Shown: one piece after another, positions 5,033 to 7,415 of the stretch
Layout: each line of letters starts with the position of its first letter
Position numbering within the stretch: position 1 is the first letter of the stretch
NCBI GenBank assembly: GCA_002722055.1
Contig: PBKD01000005.1
Location: forward strand, 17,852-81,851
Length of the DNA: 64,000 nucleotides
Direction of reading: 5' to 3'
Source: Rhodospirillaceae bacterium
GTDB taxonomy: Bacteria > Pseudomonadota > Alphaproteobacteria > SHVP01
The notes under the pieces: generated by a model
Database searches by the model: none
What the model was told of the DNA's origin: nothing
What the model saw: the letters and a program-made list of their open reading frames with translations, nothing else
Made by a program: the position numbers and the translations under genes

Positions 5033-5437
5033 ATGATAGGAAAGTTAAATCATGTTGCCATAGTTGTACCGAATCTAAATGAAGCAAAATTTAAATACAA
5101 AGATATTCTTGGTGCAACAGTTTCTGATATAGAGCACCTTGAGGTTCATGGTGTTTCTATAATATTTGTTAATTTAGGAAATACTAAAATTGAGTTAATG
5201 CATCCATTAGGGGAAAATTCTCCAATAAAAAAGTTTTTAGAAAAAAACCCAAATGGTGCAATACATCATGTATGCTATGAAGTAAAAAGTATTAAAAACT
5301 CTATAAGTTTACTTAAAGAAAAAGGTATTGAAATAATTGGAGACGGATCACCATCTATTGGTGCACATGGTAAACCTGTTATTTTTTTAAAACCTAAACA
5401 GTTTGATGGAACTCTTATTGAACTAGAAGAGGTTTGA
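5033..5437 (+). CDS. mce: Methylmalonyl-CoA epimerase
   Basis: Motifs LNHVAIVVP, KIELMHP, IHHVCYEV, GAHGKPVIFL and GTLIELEE; usual position after rnj. Confidence 0.93.
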   Translation: MIGKLNHVAIVVPNLNEAKFKYKDILGATVSDIEHLEVHGVSIIFVNLGNTKIELMHPLGENSPIKKFLEKNPNGAIHHVCYEVKSIKNSISLLKEKGIEIIGDGSPSIGAHGKPVIFLKPKQFDGTLIELEEV

Positions 5438-5442
5438 AGTTA

Positions 5443-5676
5443 ATGAATTTTTTGACAAGCTTAGCAGTTTACTTTGTTATTTGGTGGATAAGTCTATTTA
5501 TTGTATTGCCATGGGGAAACAGACCAGATGAAACTGTTATTTTGGGAAATGAAAAAAGTGCACCAGCCAAGCCAAGAATTATAATTAAATTTTTAATTAC
5601 AACAGTTTTAGCAGGGTTTATTTGGTTTTGCCTTTGGCTAATTATTTATTTTAAAATTTTTTCAATTACAGAATAA
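5443..5676 (+). CDS. DUF1467 family small membrane protein
   Basis: YFVIWWISLFIVLPWG...SAPAKP pattern with two hydrophobic helices; usual position after mce; start is ATG 5443 or TTG 5434. Confidence 0.85.
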   Translation: MNFLTSLAVYFVIWWISLFIVLPWGNRPDETVILGNEKSAPAKPRIIIKFLITTVLAGFIWFCLWLIIYFKIFSITE

Positions 5677-5705
5677 AAAAAAAGCAGGGTTTTGACCCTG
5701 CTTTT
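5675..5705. terminator. Bidirectional intrinsic terminator (stronger on minus strand)
   Basis: A9-GCAGGGT-TTTG-ACCCTGC-TTTT: perfect GC-rich stem, with 9 U on the minus strand and 4 U on the plus strand. Confidence 0.85.
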
Positions 5706-5797
5706 AAGTCGCGCTCAAATTCAATGAACAAGCGCGTAGAGACTAGGTTATTTCCTCCCTAAACTTGGGCTAATGCCTAGCCATAATCAGCCTAAGA
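5675..5797 (-). ncRNA. Putative small RNA, alpha-r9 (Smr9C)-like by position, carrying AGGGAGGAAA
   Basis: GC-richer structured island in an AT-rich spacer; stems CGCGCT/AGCGCG (5710-5736) and CTAGG/CCTAG (5743-5780); minus-strand terminator and candidate promoter; DUF1467-proS position recalled for rhizobial alpha-r9. Confidence 0.65.
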
Positions 5798-5802
5798 GTT
5801 AA

Positions 5803-5831
5803 ATAATATAATATTATTGGTTTTCAGTCAC
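5803..5831 (-). promoter_or_regulatory. Candidate sigma70 promoter of the sRNA
   Basis: Minus strand GTGACT (5831-5826), 17 bp spacer, TATTAT (5808-5803). Confidence 0.45.
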
Positions 5832-6083: not shown

Positions 6084-7415
6084 ATGAAAATCTCACAATT
6101 TTTTTTACCAACCTTAAAGGAAGCCCCGTCAGAAGCTCAAGTAATATCTCATCAACTTATGTTACGTTCAGGAATGATAAAACAGTCCTCAGCAGGAATA
6201 TATTCATGGCTACCTTTAGGATTTAAAGTTTTAAAAAAAATTGAAGAAATTATTAGATGTGAGCAAGATTATATTGGAGGACAAGAAATATTAATGCCTA
6301 CTATACAGCCAGCTGACCTTTGGATTGAAAGTGGAAGGTATGAAGATTACGGACAAGAAATGCTTCGTATAAAAGATAGATCAAATAGAGATTTATTGTA
6401 CGGACCTACAAATGAAGAACTCATAACTGATATATTTAGAACCCATTTAAAAAGTTATAAAGATCTGCCATTGTTACTCTATCATATACAATGGAAGTTT
6501 AGAGATGAGCTTAGACCAAGGTATGGGGTAATGAGAGGCAGAGAGTTTCTGATGAAGGATTCCTACTCCTTTGATTTAGATATGAACCAATCACGTTTAA
6601 CATATCAAAAAAATTTTTTATCCTATTTAAGAATTTTTTCTAAATTAGGACTTAAAGCTGTTCCTGTAAAAGCAAACCCTGGACCCATAGGTGGTGATTT
6701 GAGTCATGAATTTGTTATTTTAGCTCCTAATGGTGAAAGTGATATTTTTTTTGATAAAAAATTATTAGAGTTTGAATCTATTTCTAAAGATATTTTTTTA
6801 GACAAGAATTTAGTCGAAAAAGAATATAATAAATGGGCAAAATGTTACGCGGTAACTGATGATATTCATAACGAGAAAGAGTATAATAAACTTACAACTC
6901 CAGAAAATAGAGTAAATAGTAGAGCGATAGAAGTGGGTCATGTGTTTTATTTTGGCACAAAGTATTCTAAATCTATGGGAGCAAATTTAATAAATAATAA
7001 AGGTGAACAGTTGCCCGTTCATATGGGATCCTATGGAATAGGTGTTTCAAGATTAGTAGGTGCAATTATTGAATATTCTCATGACGATAAAGGTATTATA
7101 TGGCCAGAAAATGTTGCACCATTTTCTGTGGGAATTTTAAATCTTAAAAAAGGTGACGAATATTGTGATAAAATGAGTGAATTAGTATACCAAAACTTAC
7201 TAATAGCTGGTTTAGAGGTCCTTTACGATGATACATCAGAAAGAGCAGGATCTAAATTTGCAAATATGGACTTAATTGGATTACCATATCAAGTTTTTAT
7301 AGGATCAAAAAGTAAGGATAATGGTTTATTTGAAATTAAAGAAAGAGCAACAAATAAAAGATATTTTTTAAAATTAGAGAGTTTAATCAATCACCTGACA
7401 GAAAAATTTAATTAA
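6084..7415 (+). CDS. proS: Proline--tRNA ligase (short alphaproteobacterial type, no editing insertion)
   Basis: Motifs GPTNEE, KFRDELRPRYGVMRGREFLMKDSYSF and MGSYGIGVSRL; 443 aa. Confidence 0.97.
   Translation: MKISQFFLPTLKEAPSEAQVISHQLMLRSGMIKQSSAGIYSWLPLGFKVLKKIEEIIRCEQDYIGGQEILMPTIQPADLWIESGRYEDYGQEMLRIKDRSNRDLLYGPTNEELITDIFRTHLKSYKDLPLLLYHIQWKFRDELRPRYGVMRGREFLMKDSYSFDLDMNQSRLTYQKNFLSYLRIFSKLGLKAVPVKANPGPIGGDLSHEFVILAPNGESDIFFDKKLLEFESISKDIFLDKNLVEKEYNKWAKCYAVTDDIHNEKEYNKLTTPENRVNSRAIEVGHVFYFGTKYSKSMGANLINNKGEQLPVHMGSYGIGVSRLVGAIIEYSHDDKGIIWPENVAPFSVGILNLKKGDEYCDKMSELVYQNLLIAGLEVLYDDTSERAGSKFANMDLIGLPYQVFIGSKSKDNGLFEIKERATNKRYFLKLESLINHLTEKFN

Follow-up and report, generated by a model that had tools for sequence, protein, structure and literature searches.

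Alpha-r8/MmgR RNAs occur in nearly all Alphaproteobacteria, where they control carbon storage, transporters and metabolism. To our knowledge, the only known antagonist of these RNAs is CrfA of Caulobacter (2025), which is induced by carbon starvation and de-represses alpha-R8 targets. A second small RNA family, ar9/Smr9C (also SmrC9, Sra32 or SmelC289), belongs to the Rhizobiales and has been known since 2007. CrfA of Caulobacter crescentus sponges the alpha-R8 siblings SisA-D through a G/A-rich stem-loop, lowering their levels in an Hfq-dependent manner; the evidence comprises structure probing, compensatory mutations and reporters (Vogt et al. 2025, PMC12559287). The same paper gives UUUCCUCCCU as the common alpha-R8 core and an FGase gene as the usual neighbour of the main alpha-R8 copy. 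In Sinorhizobium meliloti, candidate C9/SmrC9 lies between SMc01933 and proS; it was mapped as a 149-nt RNA divergent from proS (PMC2780559). The ar9 family is single-copy and microsyntenic, and S. meliloti Smr9C co-precipitates with Hfq (PMC3346310). These last two papers mention neither a G-rich box nor alpha-r8. The literature searched, which covered few subscription papers and included PMC7143759, PMC8844928, PMC12542648 and bioRxiv 10.64898/2025.12.09.693200, yielded no published function for ar9, no link between ar9/Smr9C and alpha-r8 and no proS-linked sponge.

The window, by which we mean the whole 64,000-nt stretch of DNA that was analysed, is part of contig C5 of a 2.16-Mb genome (31% GC, 15 contigs, 99% complete), and a run search showed the DNA runs containing it to be marine metagenomes. 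The gene order on its plus strand is an RNase J-like gene, mce (glyoxalase fold), DUF1467, a 407-bp spacer, proS and a lolC/E-like gene. The DUF1467-proS spacer lies in the largest non-coding gap of the window; by a rough cover with ORFs of at least 90 amino acids, the next largest gap is 164 bp. A sequence-only reading of this DNA had picked out a GC-richer, structured island in the spacer and proposed that its minus strand encodes a sponge RNA antisense to the alpha-r8 seed, naming as precedents that rhizobial ar9 lies beside proS and that CrfA sponges alpha-r8-family RNAs. Both precedents agree with the papers cited above. The island does stand out in GC content: at 42.3%, it exceeds both the window as a whole (29.3%) and the remaining spacer (19.9%). 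Its minus strand carries the quoted sequence, the promoter-like match, the two stems and the terminator with nine U's, and TTTCCTCCCT is found at 5751-5760 on the plus strand (Table 1). The final bases of the U run fall inside the DUF1467 stop codon, and the plus strand offers only four U's. We place the 5' end of the RNA near 5796 from the promoter-like site and its 3' end within the U run at 5675-5683. Elsewhere in the window, the second-largest non-coding gap holds a match to the rpsB leader/small RNA RF01815 (12907-12999, plus strand; 40.4 bits against a cut-off of 40), the sole Rfam match in the window above its gathering score.

Table 1. Features of the DUF1467-proS region; positions are those of the window.
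Feature	Position	Strand	Basis and remarks
DUF1467 gene	5434..5676	+	ORF; PF07330, 76.3 bits; convergent with the small RNA; stop codon overlaps the end of the small RNA U tail
Predicted small RNA gene, about 120 nt	5675..5797	-	Model R1, 90.9 bits; Rfam ar9, 27.5 bits
Rho-independent terminator stem-loop, 11 pairs plus U's	5680..5705	-	Minus-strand terminator scan
Middle hairpin, CGCGCUU...GAGCGCG on the minus strand	5710..5736	-	Fold prediction
Possible closing stem CUAGG/CCUAG around the box	5743..5780 (5743-5747 with 5776-5780)	-	Sequence
Anti-alpha-r8 box	5752..5770	-	Perfect complement of 19 nt of the genome's own alpha-r8/MmgR RNA
5' hairpin, its 3' arm being the first part of the box	5764..5796 (5764-5771 with 5789-5796)	-	Fold prediction
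Sigma-70-like promoter site GTGACT-17-TATTAT	5803..5831	-	9/12 matches; promoter scan
proS (prolyl-tRNA synthetase)	6084..7415	+	ORF; ProS matches in relatives' loci; divergent from the small RNA

Which strand of the island is functional? Taken singly, the promoter match is at chance level, because the scan found 5 promoter-like sites in the region where 4.2 were expected. Both of its hexamers, together with the whole island, are nevertheless kept in all three genomes of the genus (that of the window and two congeners), and a -10-like box stands at the matching distance in the loci of family relatives. The minus strand is predicted to fold into the 5' hairpin, the middle hairpin and the terminator, with no junction; the closing stem and the 5' hairpin are mutually exclusive. 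The seventh pair of the middle hairpin is U.G in the minus-strand RNA, where the plus strand has C.A; the congener G002 has C-G instead. Fold z-scores do not discriminate between the strands, since they are alike (-3.0 for minus, -2.7 for plus). In four metatranscriptome runs, contigs covered parts of mce and proS only and none lay over the island; these are contigs, and such libraries usually lose small RNAs. The plus strand of the island gave no suhB match at E values up to 10 (cut-off 41 bits), and past the decamer the spacer scan detected no terminator on that strand, in line with the sequence-only reading. A plus-strand alpha-r8 gene in the window was rejected on these two grounds. The functional strand of the island appears to be the minus strand.

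An antagonist of alpha-r8 calls for a partner, and the sequence-only reading had predicted one elsewhere in the genome. We found a single match to suhB/MmgR (RF00519) above cut-off (G000:C6:166679-166755; 50.6 bits against 41), on another contig and beside an FGase gene (PF05013, 215.6 bits). This alpha-r8 RNA reads ...AAUUCCUCCCUAAACUUGGGCCC..., and positions 5752-5770 of the window's plus strand are the same 19 bases; the minus-strand RNA would hence be perfectly complementary to alpha-r8 over this stretch. The complement spans the anti-Shine-Dalgarno seed of alpha-r8, the linker and the first 4 nt of the terminator stem. A 14-mer from the 19-nt stretch occurs at only these two sites in 2.16 Mb, both strands searched. 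Co-folding gave -93.9 kcal/mol, compared with -41.1 and -34.8 (total -75.9) for the two RNAs alone, with a full-length duplex structure that is over-extended and of little meaning. Counting against pairing, the box is partly hidden in the predicted lowest-energy fold. The genome also encodes hfq (106.4 bits), as had been expected, but on a different contig (C3) and not just beyond dat.

The decamer had been described as invariant in the alpha-r8 family. It is indeed the common core in PMC12559287, as UUUCCUCCCU, but it is not strictly invariant, because the genome's own alpha-r8 (L002, 1501-1577) reads AUUCCUCCCU; so does the alpha-r8 of the congener G002. As a separate observation, a common GC-rich word, ...GCACTGCACAATAT... 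(antisense strand; L222-L261, L202, L211-L218), stands before many alpha-r8 genes in other families. It is similar to the PhaR/AniA box that PMC12542648 reports upstream of S. meliloti mmgR, and no such word was seen before the own alpha-r8 gene.

These features invite comparison with CrfA. Like CrfA, the predicted RNA has a G/A-rich region complementary to the alpha-R8 core UUUCCUCCCU, an FGase-linked alpha-R8 partner and an hfq gene in the same genome, and it would work by seed masking and decay. The extent of pairing differs, with 19 nt of perfect complementarity in the window RNA as opposed to 15 protected residues (G49-C63) in CrfA, and there is one alpha-r8 partner here where Caulobacter has four. 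The CrfA model (RF01527) found nothing in the genome, the island included, at E values up to 10 (cut-off 38 bits), although the Caulobacter vibrioides control scored above cut-off. Hence, as far as the models can see, the likeness lies in working and not in descent. The locus also fits the general description of a sponge RNA, namely extended complementarity to a small RNA seed, kept in evolution together with that small RNA.

We favour, with reasonable if not strong confidence, the reading that the window RNA is a CrfA-like alpha-r8 antagonist at the ar9 locus, acting in the sponge direction by analogy with CrfA. A minus-strand RNA of about 120 nt, ended by its terminator, would be transcribed from the proS side towards DUF1467. 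It would represent, in this genome, a small RNA that many Alphaproteobacteria have at the corresponding site, with ar9 (Smr9C) as its rhizobial branch. Its conserved box, partly single-stranded and partly borne by a hairpin, would pair over 19 consecutive bases with the sole alpha-r8/MmgR of the genome. Pairing, probably on Hfq, would mask the alpha-r8 seed and probably promote decay, as in CrfA/SisA-D, and the masking would release the mRNAs that alpha-r8 represses. We infer transcription, Hfq dependence, the sponge direction and the physiological signal; Caulobacter is the single experimental system behind the direction of control.

Could the box instead be a Shine-Dalgarno mimic unrelated to alpha-r8, marking the start of a tiny ORF or binding the 3' end of 16S rRNA? 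Its AGGGAGGAAA word does resemble a strong ribosome-binding site. However, no ATG, GTG or TTG lies 5-10 nt downstream of it, and the first TTG is about 25 nt past the GGAGG core, in a frame that is absent from genus g4. A small-ORF reading was rejected for this spacing and because its frame is not common to g4. In addition, the complementarity extends 10 nt past the Shine-Dalgarno-like core into the alpha-r8 linker and terminator foot, and it tracks lineage changes there. A mimic of this kind is highly improbable.

We next consider how the element fares in relatives. With the DUF1467 protein as query, the locus was recovered from 31 of 41 related genomes, with proS inside the same 3-kb stretch in 18. 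Conservation of the box, on which the sequence-only reading had staked its proposal, was seen on the same strand as in the window: TTCCTCCC occurs on the proS-sense strand in 13 of the 18 DUF1467-proS spacers, against 0 of 18 for the opposite strand. It lies 76-132 nt after the DUF1467 stop, or 281 nt in the case of L038, which is among the 13 but whose word belongs to a real plus-strand alpha-r8 gene (41.0 bits). Loci lacking the exact word have variants such as ATCCTCCCC, CCCTCCCC and CCCCCCCT at the matching place. A terminator with a minus-strand U tail adjoins DUF1467 in the relatives' loci, L038 being the exception with none there. The stem type GCA(A/G)GG...CC(C/U)UGC followed by a U run is present in all 22 aligned relatives, and in an 18-sequence alignment 5 of the 13 predicted pairs are changed on both sides. 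The 5' hairpin shows co-variation at its third pair (U-A in the own genus, C-G in genus g4, U.G in G005). In G002 the closing stem is CUAGA/UCUAG, one compensatory double change among three genomes and thus weak evidence.

Two relatives show unusual versions of the site. In L030 (G033), the first 170 nt past the DUF1467 stop hold about 14 tandem copies of a 10-nt unit (GGCCTGAGAT-like) at the place of the small RNA. The version in G017 (L025/L217) is about 190 nt long and has extra GGAGG-like words plus the word CCUCCCUCC; judging from these words, this RNA may be self-pairing or have several partners.

Perhaps the pairing is real and the control is reversed or mutual, so that alpha-r8 lowers a window RNA that has mRNA targets of its own, or both RNAs are destroyed? 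In Caulobacter, SisA over-expression lowers full-length CrfA and yields a degradation product, each RNA lowering the other (PMC12559287), and the window RNA has further conserved parts in its middle hairpin and A/U-rich linker. However, sequence outside the box and terminator is poorly conserved between genera (mean column identity 50%). Because invariant columns are confined to the box and terminator, there is little room for a second conserved seed. We regard reversed or mutual control as rather unlikely, and continue to prefer a sponge acting on alpha-r8.

If the box pairs with alpha-r8, the two sequences should change together. We compared each box with the alpha-r8 of its own genome over a fixed 18-nt span with neutral scoring, in 20 genomes giving 12 distinct pairs; G007 and G008, whose boxes have one or two extra bases, were left out of the count of differences. 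Lineage variants are mirrored in both partners. AAACUU is shared by box and alpha-r8 in the own genus and in G028, AAACUC in genus g4, AGACU in G017 and two Phyllobacteriaceae, GGAC likewise in Phyllobacteriaceae, GAGCC in Kordiimonas and GAACU in a Stellaceae genome. In G028 even the final U for C (GGGU) is found on both sides. Over the 18-nt span, box and alpha-r8 were identical at 193 positions. Of the differences, 17 were transitions compatible with a G.U pair when read on the minus strand, 1 was a transition that breaks a pair and 5 were transversions. A wobble-favouring scoring gave 18, 3 and 4 and was set aside for the fixed span and neutral scoring. The ratio of 17 to 1 has a binomial p of 1.4e-4 without phylogenetic correction, a test that overstates the support because related genomes are not independent. 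Selection for minus-strand pairing predicts this asymmetry; neither neutral decay of a paralogue nor plain gene conversion would, although gene conversion between the paralogous sequences could be part of the source of the concerted changes. These patterns suggest that the pairing between box and alpha-r8 is under selection, with weaker support than the binomial p implies. The 19-nt complement, the co-variation and the 17-to-1 wobble excess together support the claim of the sequence-only reading that the island encodes a candidate sponge antisense to the alpha-r8 seed.

The site also has a plus-strand history. In five genomes, the proS-sense strand at this site matches suhB, at 46.9, 45.5 and 41.0 bits and, below cut-off, at 37.6 and 33.3 bits. 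These matches (L038, 1988-2057; L200, 1496-1569; L219, 1578-1655; L210, 1507-1581; L207, 1492-1571) come from families other than that of the window, and a minus-strand element with its own terminator overlaps the match in four of the five (not in L038). In the island itself, the proS-sense strand carries the decamer and nine further bases of the own alpha-r8, but neither the family's 5' hairpin nor a terminator.

The box might be a decaying relic of an alpha-r8 paralogue in the proS sense, its complementarity functionless and its terminator merely stopping antisense transcription or read-through. The five suhB matches at the same site speak for this. So does a plus-strand hairpin that follows the decamer at the place expected for an alpha-r8 terminator, though without a U run. 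One of its pairs, position 4 of the 5' hairpin, is G.U when read on the plus strand but a mismatch, A.C, in the minus-strand RNA, which fits a relic of a plus-strand alpha-r8 hairpin. Set against this, the window's plus strand has no suhB match and no terminator past the decamer, and the box is intact in at least 27 families while the remaining parts of alpha-r8 have been lost. Neutral decay predicts something other than differences that preserve minus-strand pairing by 17 to 1. Moreover, the 149-nt Smr9C of S. meliloti has been mapped by experiment to the strand divergent from proS (PMC2780559). A functionless relic is therefore distinctly unlikely in our judgment.

How does the window RNA relate to ar9? 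Among the three Rfam families that the sequence-only reading had named for checking, CrfA and plus-strand suhB gave nothing on the island, and ar9 (RF02343) was the best match, on the minus strand, scoring 27.5 bits where the cut-off is 45. The genome has no other ar9 match; the E value of this one is 0.024 in the region and 0.016 genome-wide. None of 21 relatives' loci (17 + 4) matched ar9 within the E-value limits of 0.05 and 1. Across 151 genomes, one per family, the ar9 model gave no match above cut-off and two weak ones, with strict filters that also missed the genome of the window. L070, a weak ar9 match, was rejected as GC-rich and lacking a U tail.

A pattern scan of named genomes gave at least 120 matches, and among the matches listed most were chance hits in other phyla. 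The 11 alphaproteobacterial loci examined among the matches listed held the element in five cases (Aquamicrobium, Zhengella, Devosia, Kordiimonas and Stellaceae). Aquamicrobium sp. (112.6 bits) and Zhengella sp. (109.4 bits) have true ar9 members, both divergent from proS. Their conserved CGCGGUCAAAGUCUUGGGAGGA, whose letters are the same in the Rfam ar9 consensus, agrees at 20 of 22 positions with the complement of the alpha-r8 in the same genome, the terminator foot included. The Devosia and Kordiimonas loci have the same layout with proS adjoining; the Stellaceae locus has the same box and terminator, and proS was not found within that locus.

The window RNA thus resembles ar9 in being single-copy, beside proS and transcribed away from it, and in its length class of about 120-150 nt. 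Its terminator stem GCAGGG...CCCUGC with nine U's aligns with ar9 terminators of the GCAAGG...CCUUGC type, and its box stands in the same alignment columns as the conserved G-rich box of ar9 (consensus ...GUcAAgUCuUGGGAgGA...), which in true members is likewise complementary to the own alpha-r8. It differs in scoring below the gathering score and in its fold: instead of the long-range CGCG...CGCG helix that encloses a multi-branch region, it has a plain CGCGC hairpin, the interior being deleted in the Infernal alignment. The downstream neighbour differs as well, being DUF1467 in the window and variable in the two true ar9 loci, where one is a resolvase. Because the window RNA and its relatives fail the ar9 model, homology is argued from position, orientation, terminator type and box. 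Since the helix and the downstream neighbour differ, we regard the window RNA as related to ar9 in position and function, and not as an Rfam member.

To gauge how far the element has spread, we used a covariance model, R1, built from 22 such RNAs of relatives. R1 matched in 55 of 151 alphaproteobacterial genomes, one per family. This raw figure overstates the spread, because R1 also matches the antisense strand of ordinary alpha-r8 genes, our own included (33.8 bits), and only matches with the right neighbours were counted. To qualify, a match needed either a convergent DUF1467 or mce gene downstream of it or a divergent proS upstream. In all, 70 R1 match regions were read (30 loci and 40 further); 11 more lay outside the count, 5 of them alpha-r8 genes. 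Genomes of at least 27 of the 151 families sampled have the element at this site, oriented as in the window. Twelve relatives have no alpha-r8 match, and among these the island was found only in G001, whose genome is 83% complete; it was absent from all five other alpha-r8-less relatives with DUF1467-downstream DNA examined, a co-occurrence in keeping with functional pairing. Two further loci, L194 (G025:C6:120389-120513) and L259 (G083:C3:137445-137593), have the box-plus-terminator build with no DUF1467, mce or proS within 1.5 kb. From these two, the element may have moved in some lineages.

The window RNA may have begun as a transcript antisense to an alpha-r8 paralogue, of which only the anti-seed box was retained later. 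A broader reading, to which we give somewhat less than an even chance, joins the window RNA with rhizobial ar9/Smr9C. On that reading, the proS-linked RNA is an old antagonist of alpha-r8/MmgR across much of the class, born as the antisense of a proS-side paralogue, and CrfA is a separate and later one. The antisense strand of the paralogue would have gained its own promoter and terminator; some lineages would then have retained the sense copy, and most only the anti-seed box.

If the sponge reading is true, a second, unrelated and far more widespread alpha-r8 antagonist exists beside CrfA, and the ar9/Smr9C family gains a function. It would also offer a concrete route for the birth of a sponge RNA, by antisense transcription of a paralogue. 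That a marine genome of 2.16 Mb and 31% GC retains the whole pair would argue that the circuit is important. Its recurrence across many families would probably mean that one RNA switching another off is widespread at this site in the Alphaproteobacteria.
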